Positions 1 through 4,265 of a DNA stretch of 4,265 bases are shown piece after piece. The stretch covers positions 1 through 4,265 of IMG/VR virus record IMGVR_UViG_2541047097_000020; one strand, given 5' to 3'. The stretch's first letter is position 1, and every line of letters starts with the position of its first letter. The DNA comes from a virus (taxonomy: Duplodnaviria; Heunggongvirae; Uroviricota; Caudoviricetes). Below the pieces are notes generated by a model. It was not told the DNA's origin. It did no database searches and saw only the letters and a list, made by a program, of their open reading frames with translations. The position numbers were made by a program, and so were the translations under genes.

Positions 1-30
1 CAGTAAGACGGGCTTAGCAAGCTGGGACGG

Positions 31-375
31 TTACTTTAATAATTTCAGTGCCTTTACATCCACTTCAACACTGCTCAGGTCTTTATCAATTTCACCCTCA
101 ATTCTTACTTTGTCTTTCGGAGAAACATTCTGACCGGCCCATATGCTGTCATCGATATCCGTGACAATTGTCCCGCTATTGTCACGAAACTCATAACGTT
201 CATCACCCACTTTTTTAACGATGCTCCCTTCAAGGATAACCCATGCATCATCCTTCAGTTCTTTTGCCTGCGCTACTGTTGAACGCTCTGCTTCAGGCCC
301 TTGGAAACCGCCCTGCTGTGCAAAAGCGCCAAAAGACACACCAGAAATAAGTGCTGCAATCAATACCTTTTTCAT
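31..375 (-). CDS. BOF (bacterial OB-fold; YgiW/YdeI, DUF388) family periplasmic protein, 114 aa, with signal peptide
   Basis: ATG at 375 with AAGAGGA 6-7 nt upstream; TAA at 31-33. N-terminus MKKVLIAALISGVSFGAFA is a typical Sec signal peptide. The mature part (QQGGFQGP...TVAQAKELKDD...ERYEFRDNSGTIVTDIDD...VSPKDKVRIEGEIDKD...VEVDVKAL) follows the pattern I recall for E. coli YgiW/YdeI. Family call is from memory, not a search. Confidence 0.8.
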   Translation of the reverse strand: MKKVLIAALISGVSFGAFAQQGGFQGPEAERSTVAQAKELKDDAWVILEGSIVKKVGDERYEFRDNSGTIVTDIDDSIWAGQNVSPKDKVRIEGEIDKDLSSVEVDVKALKLLK

Positions 376-430
376 TCATAGTCCTCTTTCAGAGATGAAC
401 ATTCAAACAGCATTTTCAGTATGGTAAAGC

Positions 431-445
431 GCGGGTGCGTTGAGG
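431..445 (-). promoter_or_regulatory. Candidate 3' fold-back (fbi-like) element of the hok mRNA, complementary to the mRNA 5' end
   Basis: Plus 431-445 gcgggtgcgttgagg; its reverse complement cctcaacgcacccgc matches plus 808-821 cctcaagcacccgc at 14 positions with one extra C. In the minus-strand RNA the two would pair as a 14-bp GC-rich helix with one bulge, about 390 nt apart, flanking the hok ORF. Confidence 0.5.
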
Positions 446-465
446 ATGCCTGACACATCAGAGGT

Positions 466-487
466 GGCGGGAGATTACTCCCCCGCC
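466..487 (-). promoter_or_regulatory. GC-rich stem-loop in the hok 3' UTR
   Basis: ggcgggag-atta-ctcccccgcc gives about 8 bp with a 2-nt bulge. On the minus-strand RNA it is not followed by a U-tract, so it is called a structural element, not an intrinsic terminator. Confidence 0.4.
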
Positions 488-494
488 TGGTCTC

Positions 495-650
495 TTACTT
501 CTCAGATTCGTAGTCTACGAAGACAGCGACCTCCGTCTGACCGGTTCGGATTCGCACCTCGCAGAGGTCTTTCCTCGTTACCAGTGCCGTCACTATGACG
601 GTTAAACAGATGACGATCAGGGCGATTAACATCGCCTTTTGCTGCTTCAT
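495..650 (-). CDS. hok: Hok/Gef family type I toxin (small membrane-active host-killing peptide), 51 aa
   Basis: Product MKQQKAMLIALIVICLTVIVTALVTRKDLCEVRIRTGQTEVAVFVDYESEK: an N-terminal TM helix followed by the conserved Hok motif (RK-LCE-R, then G..EVAAF/VAVF, then YE). It is near-identical to what I recall of E. coli HokD/RelF. ATG at 648-650 with AAGGAG 10 nt upstream; TAA at 495-497. The track ORF 495..707 is the same frame with a 19-codon upstream extension. Confidence 0.88.
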   Translation of the reverse strand: MKQQKAMLIALIVICLTVIVTALVTRKDLCEVRIRTGQTEVAVFVDYESEK

Positions 651-663
651 AGCCTGCTTCTCC

Positions 664-692
664 TTGCCTTTCGGCACGTAAGAGGCTAACCT
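664..692 (+). promoter_or_regulatory. Candidate promoter of the Sok-like antisense RNA
   Basis: Plus-strand TTGCCT (664-669), 17-nt spacer, TAACCT (687-692). It lies inside the hok leader and start region and points antisense to hok, giving a predicted start near 699-700. The -10 is weak (3 of 6), so this rests mainly on position and on the similar arrangement I recall for plasmid R1 sok. Confidence 0.4.
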
Positions 693-698
693 ACATGT

Positions 699-772
699 GT
701 TCAGCATGGATTGAGCCTCAGATTAATGTTAAGCGTCTTGCAGGACGCGTAATGTTAACTGGGGCTTTTCTC
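699..772 (+). ncRNA. sok: Candidate Sok-like antisense RNA, about 70 nt, ends approximate
   Basis: The transcript from the promoter above would be complementary to the upstream in-frame AUG (705-707) and its GAGG (716-719) on the hok mRNA. An imperfect hairpin (about 728-759, core gcgtc/gacgc at 733-737 and 744-748) followed by cttttctct (765-773) could act as its terminator. Confidence 0.35.
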
Positions 773-807
773 TATCTGCCGTTGGTGTTCATGCCCGAGG
801 CAGATAG
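772..807 (-). promoter_or_regulatory. Perfect 9-bp inverted repeat in the hok mRNA leader
   Basis: ctatctgcc (772-780) and ggcagatag (799-807) are exact reverse complements separated by 18 nt. To my recollection the R1 hok leader carries an equivalent repeat (cuuucugcc / ggcagaaag) at the same relative position, which would make the differences here compensatory. Confidence 0.45.
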
Positions 808-854
808 CCTCAAGCACCCGCAGCAATTCTACTTAACTATCCTTTTCCCGCAAA
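808..854 (-). promoter_or_regulatory. Candidate hok promoter and mRNA 5' end (tac-like element)
   Basis: Minus strand: -10 TAGAAT (plus 831..826), with a weak -35 TTTGCG (plus 854..849) 17 nt upstream. The predicted start near 819-821 coincides with the beginning of the 14-nt segment (821..808) that is complementary to 431-445. Confidence 0.4.
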
Positions 855-940
855 CCGTTTTTATCCCCAGCGGCAAATCGAATACACCACCAGCGCCACC
901 GCCATCGCAATTCCTACCGTTGTGAATGCTTCAGGCCAGG

Positions 941-1498
941 TCATTGATTCACCTCCTGCGGCGGTTCTGGTAGCGACATCCAGTGGGTTGCTTGCCTAAG
1001 ATCATTACCCGGACTAACTGCTATACCTCCGCGCCGGAACGTGCCTCCGAGATAGCGTGCGGAATATATTAATGGCCCAGCCTCGCTATCGATATTCATC
1101 GAAATAAGCACGTTCTGGCTCTTTTCAGGCATTCGCTCAGTACAGCTTATCCAGCCATCCAGAGTTATCGGAGATCTGGTTGACGTTTCCGAGATTTCCC
1201 GAAAATTGTTGGTTGACGAATTCTTATTTTCCCGAAAGTTTCCGGCCTGAAGCATGGCGACGCGGCAGGCGTTCCAGCCATCAGCATATGTTTTAGTTAC
1301 ACCGTCGAGATGGCAGGTAAGCAAATCCATTTCATCAGGCACTACCATTGCTATCGGCTCTGCTTCCAGTGATGCCAGCGCGATACGAAACACATTAGCC
1401 AGCAGGCTGTCTGAAGACTTGTTATCGTGCGCCGAGTCGCTCAGGAAGCCTGTGATGTATGATTTAATCTCCGCGCGTTCTCTGGTAATAGTGCTCAT
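941..1498 (-). CDS. Phage protein with C-terminal DUF551-like domain, 185 aa
   Basis: ATG at 1496-1498 lies 1 nt after the stop of the upstream ORF, with AAGGAAAA inside that ORF's 3' end. The C-terminal part (DGWISCTERMPE...ATHWMSLPEPP) matches the W-I-S...LPE and THWMPLPEPP motifs I associate with DUF551 proteins of enterobacterial prophages. The N-terminal half is unassigned. Confidence 0.7.
   Translation of the reverse strand: MSTITRERAEIKSYITGFLSDSAHDNKSSDSLLANVFRIALASLEAEPIAMVVPDEMDLLTCHLDGVTKTYADGWNACRVAMLQAGNFRENKNSSTNNFREISETSTRSPITLDGWISCTERMPEKSQNVLISMNIDSEAGPLIYSARYLGGTFRRGGIAVSPGNDLRQATHWMSLPEPPQEVNQ
1178..1243 (-). repeat. Imperfect 33-bp tandem duplication inside the DUF551 gene
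   Basis: Units at 1178-1210 and 1211-1243 both begin ggttgacg and share ttttcccgaaa; about 22 of 33 positions are identical. They encode the tandem peptide NFRENKNSSTN / NFREISETSTR in the linker before the DUF551 domain. Confidence 0.6.
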
Positions 1499-1499
1499 A

Positions 1500-1718
1500 T
1501 CAGTTTTCCTTATACGGATTAATTTTATTGTGCAGTGCGCTGAATGATTCCCATGTCACATCGGTATATAGCTCAATAACTGGTTCAAATGTCCTTCCAA
1601 TTATCCAGACCAGTAATAGCGGGGATATCGGTATCATCAACACTATAAACAGAATGAAAAACAGAAACTCTGTTGTTCTGCTCTTTCGTGGGTAATTTTT
1701 TTCTAAATAATGTTTCAT
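1500..1718 (-). CDS. Small single-pass membrane protein, 72 aa, function unknown
   Basis: ATG at 1716-1718; stop TGA at 1500-1502 sits 1 nt before the next gene's ATG. One clear hydrophobic helix (FLFFILFIVLMIPISPLLLVWIIG) follows a basic N-terminus. The region is markedly AT-rich compared with its neighbours (judged by eye). Confidence 0.55.
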   Translation of the reverse strand: MKHYLEKNYPRKSRTTEFLFFILFIVLMIPISPLLLVWIIGRTFEPVIELYTDVTWESFSALHNKINPYKEN

Positions 1719-1724
1719 TTCTTA

Positions 1725-1750
1725 CCGCCCTTTCGGGCGGCCTCCTGATG
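1725..1750 (-). promoter_or_regulatory. 5' UTR element: AGGAGG followed by a GC hairpin, upstream of the 72-aa ORF
   Basis: Minus-strand RNA reads CAUCAGGAGG (1750..1741), then CCGCCC-GAAA-GGGCGG (1740..1725, 6-bp stem with a GNRA tetraloop), then UAAGAA, then AUG (1718). The linear distance from AGGAGG to AUG is about 22 nt; the folded hairpin would bring them to normal spacing. Confidence 0.4.
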
Positions 1751-1845
1751 TTCTGAGGGTGCAGGAATCCCTCCGGTTAAGGATTTAATAAAAATCGTTT
1801 CTGATTTAAATCTTCAGTATTTAGTTGTTAGTTGGTTTATCGCCT

Positions 1846-2157
1846 TTATGCTTCAGCCTTATTTCGCAACCAGACACAAACCGGGCCATCTTCCGTATCA
1901 TGAATGGAACCAATAAACCAGCCATCGCCCTCTGGTCGTTCCGGTTCCCATGCAGAAATATCAGCATCACACGCATCAAGGTCAGCACATCCTTCATCTC
2001 TGAAGCAGAGGACGTATTGAAGATTATTTTCCTCCATCCAGGCGTTAAACTCTTCCGTTGAAATATATTCCCGACCATCACAGAATTTTTCATATTCAGG
2101 ATGCGTCCAGCAGCCATATTCATTACGTTCCACTGGCATTTCTTTAATTACGCTCAT
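1846..2157 (-). CDS. Strongly acidic, Cys-rich small protein, 103 aa, function unknown
   Basis: ATG at 2155-2157 overlaps the upstream TGA as ATGA and is preceded by GGGGGG. About 25 Asp/Glu against 8 Lys/Arg, plus 6 Cys. The overlapping same-strand ORF 1821..2123 has no coupling and a junk-like composition. Confidence 0.6.
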   Translation of the reverse strand: MSVIKEMPVERNEYGCWTHPEYEKFCDGREYISTEEFNAWMEENNLQYVLCFRDEGCADLDACDADISAWEPERPEGDGWFIGSIHDTEDGPVCVWLRNKAEA

Positions 2158-2342
2158 TTACCCCCCTTATTTAATTTTCTACGACACTTTTTACAATCAT
2201 CTGGACTTTCGAATGTATCCGGCTCACGCTCATTGCCAAAATACATCCACCCACCGCAAATACTTGTTATTTCACCTTCAGCAAAATAATGATGTTTTTT
2301 CGCCATAAGTGGCCTTGCCCAGCCCGGATTCGTTTTACTCAC
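2154..2342 (-). CDS. Small basic Cys/His-containing protein, 62 aa, GTG start
   Basis: GTG at 2340-2342 overlaps the upstream TGA as GTGA, with AAGGAGG 6 nt upstream. Contains HH and three Cys (ICGG, CKKC) and a Lys/Arg-rich tail; a zinc-binding fold is possible but not proven. Confidence 0.5.
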   Translation of the reverse strand: MSKTNPGWARPLMAKKHHYFAEGEITSICGGWMYFGNEREPDTFESPDDCKKCRRKLNKGGK

Positions 2343-2695
2343 TTGTTGCCTCCTTTGCGAAGCTCTGCGACTAACTCGTCACATATGTGCGTCAAAGAGC
2401 AAAGTTTGATTGCTGGATGTTCGCGCACCATCTCCACACCCTGCGCCCGCAATTCTGCCAGAAAAGCGTAGGGGTCAGTTTTTTCACTGTGGTACATGGC
2501 ATCATAGATAATCATTGCAGCGACACCTGCCTGTCCTGCATCTGTGACGGATATATGCTCAAGGGCTACGGCCATTGCGTGTTTCAACCTCTCATTTTCC
2601 ACCTCAAGCACCACACGATTAGCCTCCAGCTCTTCTATGCGTTTTTTTGCTGCTCCCAGCTCAACACGCAGCTCCTGATAGTTAATCTCGCTCAT
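2339..2695 (-). CDS. Hypothetical phage protein with N-terminal coiled-coil, 118 aa
   Basis: ATG at 2693-2695 overlaps the upstream TGA as ATGA, with GGAGGAAGGAGA immediately upstream. The N-terminus (ELRVELGAAKKRIEELEANRVVLEVENERLKHAM) has a clear heptad-like composition. It may belong to the prophage Ead/Ea22-like group, but that is a guess. Confidence 0.65.
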   Translation of the reverse strand: MSEINYQELRVELGAAKKRIEELEANRVVLEVENERLKHAMAVALEHISVTDAGQAGVAAMIIYDAMYHSEKTDPYAFLAELRAQGVEMVREHPAIKLCSLTHICDELVAELRKGGNK

Positions 2696-2916
2696 TCTCC
2701 TTCCTCCCGCACTGCTGTTTTATATGCCCGAAGCACATGCGATGTTTTTCCTGACACAGTGCTTCTCAGAAAGAAAATTCCACTGGTGTTTATTACCAGA
2801 TACGGGTCAGCAAGACGCAGCATATCCAGTATGTGATTATGTTTTCTTGTTTCCAGCACCGTACTTGAAATAAGCATATGTGACACGGGGCCGAAATCAT
2901 GATATCTGATTTTCAT
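2692..2916 (-). CDS. Hypothetical small protein, 74 aa
   Basis: ATG at 2914-2916 lies 21 nt after the stop of the 232-aa gene, with a weak GGTGA upstream. Its 3' end encodes the strong ribosome-binding site of the next gene and overlaps it as ATGA. No family recognised. Confidence 0.5.
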   Translation of the reverse strand: MKIRYHDFGPVSHMLISSTVLETRKHNHILDMLRLADPYLVINTSGIFFLRSTVSGKTSHVLRAYKTAVREEGE

Positions 2917-2937
2917 ATCATCACCCTGCTGTAAAAA

Positions 2938-3636
2938 TTACCCGTTATCTCCTGTCGTTATTTTCTGTATGACATCACGATGCTTATTAATTTCCCGCAG
3001 CGCGGCGCATAAGCGCTCCCACTTCTGAACCTGACCTTTTGCCCGGCGCAGCTCGCGGTTAGCCACATGCAGCGATGGTAAAATCAGACCATCCGGATGC
3101 TTTCTGGTGAACGACGGCTGTGACTGCACTGTGACCGCCACACTTTCAGTTTTTATTTCTTCCTGTGTTTCCGCTTCCCGGACTGGTAACGCAACACCTG
3201 CTGGCTGAGGAAAGGCTTTACCATCGGTTTCCGTTACCGATGCAGCTTTCGGCTCTGCCGGTAAATTATCGCCCGGTATGCAGTAACGATATTTACCGTC
3301 CTGATTTACGCGAATCAGACGACCTTTGCTGACAGCCATCGCCAGTGATGAATTCGCCCGGCGGGAGGTAATCCCGAACATTAACGCCAGTTCGTCAGCC
3401 GACTGAGGACCATGCTGTTCAATCGCGTTAATCAGCATCTCTGCAGTGGTTTTTGGGGCCGCTTCAGTTGCCTCACTCGTCAGCCACCACATCGACCCCT
3501 TGTTATCAGCTTCGCCACGACGCTTCAGCTTCCAGAGTTCGGTAACAGCATCGTCACGGCTGATTTCAAGACGGGCTGCAATCTCGTGCGACGAGGCTTT
3601 TTTCAGTGCTTTCAGTGCGTCAAAAACGGTTTCCAT
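2938..3636 (-). CDS. Phage protein with two N-terminal winged-helix-like segments and a basic C-terminal helix, 232 aa (possibly DUF1627-like)
   Basis: Preferred start is ATG 3634-3636, preceded by GGGAGG 7 nt upstream and 34 nt after the stop of the P-like gene. The track's longer start at 3702 has no properly spaced ribosome-binding site and would overlap P by 32 nt. Two helix-turn-helix-like stretches ([35 protein letters not shown]; [40 protein letters not shown]), an A/P/E/T-rich linker, then a basic C-terminus. Confidence 0.7.
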
Positions 3637-3670
3637 TAAATTTTCCTCCCGGTAAAAATTACTTCTCAAC

Positions 3671-4265
3671 TCAGACAAAACCGGCCGCCTTCCGGCGCTC
3701 ATATTCCTGTTTCAGCAATTCAATTGGCGTTGGCCCTGGCGGGCGTTTGGGTGCTGCCAGTTGTCGCCGGACTGGCGGAACACTGAGGCCATTACCAACA
3801 TGCTTTGCCCATTTCGTCAGCTGCCTTTCCACAAGCCGTTTTAACTCCCCTTCGGTCATCTGGCGCTCAATCCCCTTTGAACGCATCTCGAGGCAAATGT
3901 GGTACAGCACCGGCTGTGGCCACGGGTATTTATCACTCCCGTCGTACCGCCAGGATTCATTCCTCCAGCGACGGTACTCCTCCATCACGGCATCCACCGT
4001 CAGGCCAAATGGATTTGCCCCGCTCTCCGAAATCAACGCCACAAACTCAGCCAGATCCGGAGGCCACGTTTCACCCGCCCGGCAGCGGTCCATGCACTGA
4101 CGGCAGACCTGCCGGATTTGCTGTTCAGTCATCGCGCCAATCTGAGCAATCCAGAGCTTCGACGGCGCAGCCCCGTTCTTCTGGGTCCAGCGGTTCGAAT
4201 ACACCTCCCCCATAAGTTCCCACAGCTTCCAGGCCGTTTCCGTTGCTGATAAATCCGTTTTCACG
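3671..4265 (-). CDS. P: Lambda P-like replication protein (DnaB helicase loader); 5' end lies outside the window
   Basis: The translation lines up block-wise with lambda P as I recall it: [12 protein letters not shown] against [27 protein letters not shown] against YPWKSNAHYWLVTNLY, and a similar Pro-rich basic tail. TGA at 3671-3673. The frame is open to the window edge and the track start is only an edge GTG; about 30-35 N-terminal residues are probably missing. Confidence 0.8.

Follow-up and report, generated by a model that had tools for sequence, protein, structure and literature searches.

Evidence for an intact hokW-type hok/mok/sok module, with paired mRNA ends, in the early region of a lambdoid prophage

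A small hok-like reading frame flanked by complementary segments within a prophage raises the question of whether the locus is an intact, regulated toxin-antitoxin module or a decayed remnant, and, if it is intact, of what it does for the prophage that carries it. One such frame lies in the window, which is the whole stretch of 4,265 nucleotides analyzed here (positions 1 to 4,265 of the IMG/VR record IMGVR_UViG_2541047097_000020, Caudoviricetes). A preliminary description made from the letters alone had proposed that window positions 425-855 contain an intact hok module whose mRNA has matching elements at its 5′ and 3′ ends, a proposal now supported by a covariance model, the minimum-free-energy (MFE) fold, and conserved complementarity. 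The locus is very probably an intact hok/mok/sok type I toxin-antitoxin module and a paralog of hokW/mokW/sokW of 933W and Sp5. The reading as a hok/sok-type locus thus stood; what that description had omitted was the mok frame, the sok gene, and the existing name, as the locus is already known as hokW/mokW/sokW, was annotated in 1999, and was studied experimentally in 2021 in its Sp5 copy.

The identity of the locus follows from its near matches. Across the 431 nt of positions 425-855, identity is 99.3% with phage 933W (AF125520), in which the stretch is annotated as mokW/hokW/sokW, and 99.3-99.5% with many Stx phages (megablast against phage records). Within this interval the window differs from 933W at 487, 742, and 839 only. 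None of these positions falls in mok or hok; the Hok protein encoded here is therefore identical to HokW, and Mok is likewise identical, all differences from 933W being outside the coding sequence. Over the 397 nt of the mRNA, identity reaches 100% with two further sequences: the STEC310 record and a second copy, located in the nin region of another prophage of O157:H7 EDL933. Among complete E. coli genomes, 4716 of 5426 had a megablast match, with 2 matching places in the median genome and up to 10 in a single one, and the O157:H7 strains among those listed carried ∼6 copies each. No complete E. coli genome matched the window throughout: the best one covers 81% of it, with 2157-2992 as a differing region. 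The elements of the module and its neighbors are collected in Table 1.

Table 1. Features of the hok/mok/sok module and adjoining genes, in window coordinates; minus-strand RNA elements are predicted or assigned by homology.
Feature	Position	Strand	Remarks
hok/mok promoter	826..853	-	weak -35-like TTGCGG (853..848), 16-nt spacer, -10 TAGAAT (831..826)
tac (translational activator), mRNA 5′ end	808..819	-	GGGUGCUUGAGG; RF01794 match starts at 819; pairs with 433-445 in MFE fold
Leader hairpin	772..807	-	9-bp perfect stem, 807..799 with 780..772
ucb (anti-SD) AAGCCCC	761..767	-	MFE fold pairs mRNA 54-59 with 101-106 (mok SD)
mok-SD-sequestering hairpin, Sok target region	714..767	-	sequesters GAGG 719..716
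mok reading frame, 70 aa	495..707	-	contains hok in frame; counterpart annotated mokW in 933W
hok toxin ORF, 51 aa	650..495	-	MKQQKAMLIALIVICLTVIVTALVTRKDLCEVRIRTGQTEVAVFVDYESEK; SD AAGGAG at 665..660
G+C-rich 3′ stem-loop	466..487	-	GGCGGGGGAG-UAAU-CUCCCGCC; repeat I7; in MFE fold
fbi (fold-back inhibition)	433..445	-	CCUCAA-C-GCACCC, partner of tac
sok promoter	664..692	+	TTGCCT (664-669), 17-nt spacer, TAACCT (687-692)
sok antisense RNA gene (SokW), 71 nt	699..769	+	coordinates transferred from misc_RNA sokW, AF125520
Downstream neighbor, secreted YgiW/YdeI (BOF) family protein	31..375	-	Pfam BOF 113.7 bits
Upstream gene order		-	replication protein P (Pfam 60 bits), DUF1627, several small ORFs, Ead/Ea22-like, DUF4014, DUF551, hok/sok

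The coding part of the module was identified by its protein family. The 51-aa reading frame that had been noticed as Hok-like can be read from the sequence, and its peptide matches the Pfam family HOK_GEF (PF01848) at 81.1 bits (cut-off 22) across profile positions 1-42 of 42. Hok is a membrane-depolarizing peptide. The longer mok frame has its own Shine-Dalgarno (SD) sequence, GAGG at 719..716, 8 nt 5′ of the mok ATG, and the nesting of hok within mok in the same frame is the arrangement found in K-12 mokC/hokC. On the minus strand, the curated Rfam family RF01794 (“sok”) matches the leader at 645-819 with 113.5 bits (gathering score 59, E = 3.2e-26), over the whole model from position 1 to 157 of 157. 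RF01794 describes the 157-nt leader only and Rfam has no model for the entire hok mRNA, so that no single model spans 425-855; the coding sequence was covered by Pfam and the 3′ untranslated region by the comparative analysis below.

The two mRNA ends are complementary to each other, as in plasmid R1. The complementarity that had been described between 808-821 and 431-445, with one bulged C, was confirmed: the reverse complement of 808-821 is GCGGGTGCTTGAGG, the plus-strand letters at 431-445 are GCGGGTGCGTTGAGG, and the two differ by one extra G. In the minus-strand RNA, the 5′ segment GCGGGUGCUUGAGG pairs with CCUCAA-C-GCACCCGC, ∼375 nt downstream, around the single bulged C. An ungapped inverted-repeat finder recovered only the proximal half of this helix (repeat I3, 440-452/801-813) because the bulge splits it. 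When RNAduplex was used to pair the first 14 nt with the 140 nt that follow the stop codon, the duplex energy was -21.5 kcal/mol, which none of 200 shuffled 5′ segments reached (mean -13.9), placing the 5′/3′ pairing beyond chance. The outermost pairs, 820/432 and 821/431, are unconserved in homologs, which fits an mRNA start near G819, and the conserved helix is that of 808-819 with 433-445.

Conservation of this helix was assessed in a comparative set of 49 related loci, one genome per species, together with the R1-type plasmid locus, whose sequence matched plasmid records at 100%. The 5′/3′ complementarity is conserved in Escherichia, Shigella, Kluyvera, Photorhabdus, Pantoea, Erwinia, and the R1-type plasmid locus. 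The alignment comprised 31 distinct full-length mRNAs, the window copy included, and only loci with a detectable duplex entered it. Because MAFFT left the proximal half of this helix (helix 1) out of register between the bulged and unbulged lineages, the tac/fbi pairs were tallied per sequence with RNAduplex. Besides the window copy, all 30 other mRNAs of the alignment keep the helix, and two of its positions show compensatory changes. At position 4, the 31 mRNAs have U-A in 17, C-G in 11, U-G in two, and a mismatch in one; at position 12, by the register-aware tally, G-C occurs in 19, A-U in 10, and G-U in one, and one is unpaired. A lack of conservation in homologous loci, which would have spoken against the proposed end pairing, was thus not what these two positions revealed. 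A search within 140 nt of the stop codon found no fbi in three Photorhabdus loci (L028, L034, and L037), which were left out of the alignment, so that conservation of tac/fbi is not universal. Of these three loci, only L034 runs into the end of its contig.

The remainder of the mRNA structure is likewise constrained. The 397-nt RNA has an MFE of -168.4 kcal/mol (z = -7.1), and none of 100 shuffles was as good. Its MFE fold holds the tac/fbi helix, the leader hairpin, the hairpin of ucb with the mok SD, and the 3′ stem-loop; both structures that had been expected in it, the 5′/3′ helix and the leader hairpin, are present. The perfect 9-bp inverted repeat reported for the leader is likewise real, formed by 772-780 (CTATCTGCC) and 799-807 (GGCAGATAG). 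When the MFE structure of the window copy was laid on the alignment of 31 mRNAs, 83% of its pairs could form, vs. 37-43% when the partners were slid by 1 to 3 columns. Pairs changing on both sides numbered 38, compared with a shuffle mean of 25.5, and none of 500 shuffles reached 38. These changes are spread over several helices: the leader hairpin (helix 2) is 94.6% paired, with three pairs changed on both sides (for example, A-U in 23, U-A in six, and G-C in one); the mok-SD hairpin (helix 4) is 86.6% paired, with six such pairs (for example, G-C in 14, A-U in 10, U-A in two, and C-G in one); and the 3′ stem-loop (helix 19) is 94.5% paired, with four. At position 487, at the base of the 3′ stem, the window has C and 933W has T. 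By analogy with R1, this stem-loop is presumed to be a barrier to 3′-exonucleolytic trimming (PMC9841398). The shuffles and the covariation exclude a chance inverted repeat as the source of the pairing.

Transcription of the module would proceed from two convergent promoters. The -10 hexamer TAGAAT that had been pointed out was confirmed as the reverse complement of 826-831; it ends 6 nt 5′ of G819, the first position of the Rfam model match, and the hok mRNA would accordingly be expected to start at about G819. A TA...T hexamer stands 6 nt 5′ of the GGG start in all homologs (TATAAT in K-12 hokC, TATGAT in the R1 type). On the other strand, the layout of the sok promoter, including its 17-nt spacing, matches that of the aligned R1-type locus. 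The hexamers of both promoters are weak. A generic sigma-70 consensus scan of 300-1000 called neither the hok/mok nor the sok promoter, so their assignment relies on homology, positional conservation, and a published promoter mutation: in the promoter-less sokW construct of Takada et al. (2021), primer YO-421 replaces exactly the TAACCT -10 box, and antitoxin activity was abolished (PMC8621323). The primers of that study match the window sequence. A terminator scan of the same interval (300-1000) called no intrinsic terminator after fbi.

The antisense RNA is complementary to the SD and the start codon of mok, and its gene differs from that of 933W at one position, 742, within the hairpin loop. 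The RNA of 699-775 is predicted to fold at -32.7 kcal/mol (z = -6.0) into a single-stranded 5′ tail and a long hairpin, followed by the U-rich tail UUUUCUCU; the predicted structure of Sok is therefore a 5′ tail with a terminator-like hairpin.

Set against known systems, the locus shares its order of elements (promoter, tac, leader hairpin, ucb, mok SD, mok, hok, 3′ stem-loop, and fbi) with hok/sok (parB) of plasmid R1 and related F-type plasmids, and both match Rfam RF01794 and Pfam PF01848. They differ in that R1 Hok is 44% identical to HokW (PMC8621323), the loop of the leader hairpin is much longer in R1, whereas the Sok-target hairpin is longer in the window locus, and the tac/fbi helix has one bulge here but two unpaired positions in the R1 type; the replicon is a plasmid for R1 and a prophage for the window locus. 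K-12 hokC/mokC/sokC (gef) has the same tac, GGGUGCUUGAGG, a -10 at equal spacing, an in-frame mok, and an annotated sokC. In K-12 MG1655, however, IS186A lies within the 3′ stem-loop of hokC and the fbi (UCUUCAACGCACCC) is 1.3 kb from hok, whereas the window copy is uninterrupted. The contrast that had been drawn with decayed K-12 loci therefore holds for hokC, in which IS186 separates hok from fbi. For the window copy, a decayed remnant was ruled out, as all elements are intact. The closest relative, hokW of 933W and Sp5 (VT2-Sakai), has the same Sok region except for one loop base.

The genomic setting distinguishes the window copy from that relative. On its minus strand the window reads as a lambdoid early region, and the prophage early-region setting that had been proposed is correct, given the upstream genes for replication protein P, DUF1627, Ead/Ea22-like, DUF4014, and DUF551. 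Downstream of the module, the matching EDL933 prophage carries DUF968, RusA, and DUF1133 genes, and the STEC310 record carries RusA and an antitermination protein. The DUF968/RusA genes of the nin region lead to the late-gene regulator. In 933W/Sp5 the module adjoins attR, whereas here and in the second EDL933 prophage it occupies the nin region, from DUF551 to DUF968/RusA. Window positions 1-959 are 98.4% identical to 933W, where they adjoin attR, so the same cassette occurs in two different prophage positions. Since 933W hokW has the same ygiW-like gene downstream (L0136) and the same small ORF upstream as here, the YgiW/BOF gene travels with the hok module.

The mechanism of control that these elements suggest is that of R1, as summarized in PMC9841398. 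A weak constitutive promoter (TAGAAT) would yield a minus-strand mRNA of ∼390 nt carrying mok and hok, and the convergent plus-strand promoter would yield the 71-nt Sok covering the mok ribosome-binding site and start codon. In the full-length mRNA, tac (808-819) would be paired with fbi (433-445), and in this fold ucb (761-767) would sequester the mok SD, giving a stable RNA that is neither translated nor bound by Sok. Slow 3′ trimming to the G+C-rich stem-loop (466-487) would then strip fbi, upon which tac could pair with ucb and free the mok SD; the open RNA would either pair with Sok and be cleaved by RNase III or, once the short-lived Sok is gone, be translated to Hok. For a hokW-type locus, the 3′ processing and refolding are inferred from R1.

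Complementarity between tac and ucb is present (repeat I1, 761-780/799-818, which spans the alternative tac/ucb and leader stem). The energetic penalty for imposing the open tac/ucb stem is 13.7 kcal/mol on the full-length RNA but 4.1 kcal/mol when the RNA ends behind the 3′ stem-loop. Truncated at 460, the RNA has an MFE fold with a local 5′ hairpin of the metastable type and not the open tac/ucb form, so the activation step is carried over from R1 by inference. Only the constrained-energy comparison favors the expected direction of tac/ucb opening. Two smaller hokW RNAs were seen by Takada et al., and their identity with a truncated form is uncertain (PMC8621323).

What the module does is best approached through the 99.3%-identical Sp5 copy, for which Takada et al. 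found HokW to be toxic and localized to the inner membrane, and to be neutralized, also in trans, by SokW expressed from its own promoter; this neutralization depends in part on RNase III and Hfq (PMC8621323). Given the identity of its proteins to those tested in Sp5, the window copy may likewise be toxic and be neutralized by Sok. Mitomycin C induction of Sp5 led to the disappearance of SokW and to the production of HokW-3FLAG ∼1 h before endolysin, both depending on RecA (PMC8621323). Deletion of hokW-sokW delayed growth arrest after mitomycin C by ∼40 min, lowered the phage yield at 8 h by about half, and left growth unaffected under normal conditions (PMC8621323). The outcome of this single experimental study, assistance to lysis and to phage release upon induction, differs from the roles that had been suggested for the module (prophage stabilization, abortive infection, and exclusion).

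These experiments bear directly on the reading that we prefer, to which we give somewhat less than an even chance, namely that the module assists lysis: upon induction Sok would disappear, Hok would be made ∼1 h before endolysin, and the membrane damage would speed lysis and raise the phage yield. The delayed arrest, the loss of SokW, and the halved yield all come from Sp5 (PMC8621323), and the Hok and Mok tested there are identical to those encoded here. Against this stand the size of the evidence (one study, in a K-12 lysogen, with a twofold effect), the different prophage and position of the window copy (the nin region vs. beside attR), and the chance that the window prophage is defective, in which case no phage release would be at stake. 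If the module instead stabilized the prophage by post-segregational killing as in R1, loss of the prophage would leave a cell without unstable Sok and with a stable hok mRNA that kills it. All RNA elements for R1-type delayed activation are present and conserved; hok is four times enriched in prophages (23% observed vs. 5% expected) according to a recent survey (bioRxiv 10.1101/2025.08.07.668861); and O157:H7 genomes hold ∼6 copies. This is nonetheless unlikely, as a cell that had lost one prophage would probably be protected by Sok made from the other near-identical copies, of which a genome has several, and the hokW-sokW deletion had no effect on growth under normal conditions (PMC8621323).

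A benefit against other phages, through exclusion or abortive infection, is quite improbable. An infecting phage that shuts off host transcription would deplete Sok and lead to early killing by Hok, and R1 hok/sok on a high-copy plasmid did reduce the plating efficiency of T4 by 42% and its plaque size by ∼85% (cited in PMC8621323). Prophages often carry defense genes, but hok is not enriched near defense systems (10.1101/2025.08.07.668861). It is also conceivable, if doubtful, that the module benefits neither phage nor host and is a selfish cassette that hitch-hikes with the ygiW-like gene by recombination among lambdoid prophages. The recurrence of a cassette of 959 bp or more, 98.4% identical, at two unrelated prophage positions, the matches in 4716 of 5426 complete E. 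coli genomes, and the existence of decayed copies (K-12 hokC with IS186, and two Photorhabdus loci without detectable fbi) are in keeping with such a spread, whereas the strong purifying and compensatory conservation of RNA structure across genera and the measurable phenotype in Sp5 (PMC8621323) argue against it.

The orientation of the module offers a possible connection between induction and Hok production. The int/xis/pL genes of 933W share the minus strand with hokW, so that, once the prophage has excised, transcripts from pL reading past int would run into hokW in the sense direction. There is a slim chance that the position of the module is functional, in that N-antiterminated early read-through silences the head-on sok promoter and so couples Hok to induction. 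Here, hok would be reached in the sense direction inside the pR/nin operon; in 933W/Sp5, it would be reached downstream of int across attP, only after excision and circularization. In both, early transcription would meet the sok promoter head-on, and transcriptional interference would shut off the short-lived Sok.

As a locus, the module has little discovery value, since the 933W annotation exists, the enrichment of hok in prophages is known, and a near-identical Sp5 copy has been characterized. The comparison does provide clean compensatory evidence that the R1-type tac/fbi fold-back holds for the prophage hokW lineage, a point unaddressed in the hokW paper, and the occurrence of one cassette in two different prophage positions is of some use. 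The orientation idea, if true, could explain how induction triggers HokW, and read-through interference would then account for a finding that Takada et al. did not explain, namely that SokW is lost in a RecA-dependent manner.

The ygiW-like gene, the hok/sok module and a 27-aa small open reading frame form one cassette, which is 98.4% identical between its nin-region setting in the window and the attR-proximal region of phage 933W; the similarity to 933W breaks off within the DUF551 gene. The ATG of the 27-aa hydrophobic frame shares bases with the stop codon of DUF551, in the sequence ATGA (941-944). In 933W the frame is retained open with five conservative amino-acid changes, the DNA on either side being 98% identical, and identical copies are present in several further loci. 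It carries no annotation in 933W or in the RefSeq record of EDL933, and its product may be a small membrane protein.

Coordinates of the cassette, its genes and the other features described (L-numbers are fetched comparison loci)
Feature	Record	Position	Strand	Remarks
Cassette	Window	1-959		
Cassette	L001	3577-4535		
YgiW/YdeI protein	Window	31-375	-	BOF, OB-fold; apparent signal peptide
27-aa hydrophobic ORF	Window	861-944	-	MTWPEAFTTVGIAMAVALVVYSICRWG; unannotated
G+C-rich hairpin	Window	1722-1745		ACCGCCCTTTCGGGCGGC; in 127-nt gap directly upstream of DUF4014 ORF (minus strand)
Tandem hok loci	L018	1413-1773 and 2042-2391		
K-12 hokC, IS186A insertion	L053	733-751		
K-12 hokC, IS186A insertion	L055	100-187		

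Window 2157-2992, which includes ORFs of 62 aa, 118 aa (Ead/Ea22-like) and 74 aa, has no counterpart in the EDL933 and STEC310 prophage regions, which match elsewhere, and this difference is typical lambdoid mosaicism. The G+C-rich hairpin accounts for a weak, chance-level Rfam match to G-CSF_SLDE (E = 0.9). Although RF01794 is named 'sok antitoxin', its consensus has the polarity of the hok mRNA leader, terminating at the hok AUG; the match at 645-819 (-) therefore shows the hok strand, not the Sok-encoding strand.

Short contigs attributed to Xanthomonas pisi, Acinetobacter idrijaensis, a Veillonella MAG and further MAGs (L010, L009, L031, L039, L042) carried near-identical hok loci. Contamination with Escherichia coli or misbinning is the most likely explanation, in preference to genuine occurrence in these hosts. 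Tandem hok loci, two within ∼600 bp, occurred on Photorhabdus and Pseudocitrobacter contigs (L018, L040, L037), and one Photorhabdus copy (L018b) has a hok gene with a 12-nt deletion. In hokC of E. coli K-12, IS186A sits exactly inside the loop of the 3′ stem-loop, in the order GGCGGGGAGTGA, IS186, GTGATCCCCGCC; the 3′ fold-back inhibition element (fbi) is intact there, but lies 1.3 kb off owing to the insertion.

In the window, the YgiW/YdeI gene starts 56 nt past fbi, and no terminator was called between the two; this gene may share a transcript with hok or lie on an early read-through transcript.
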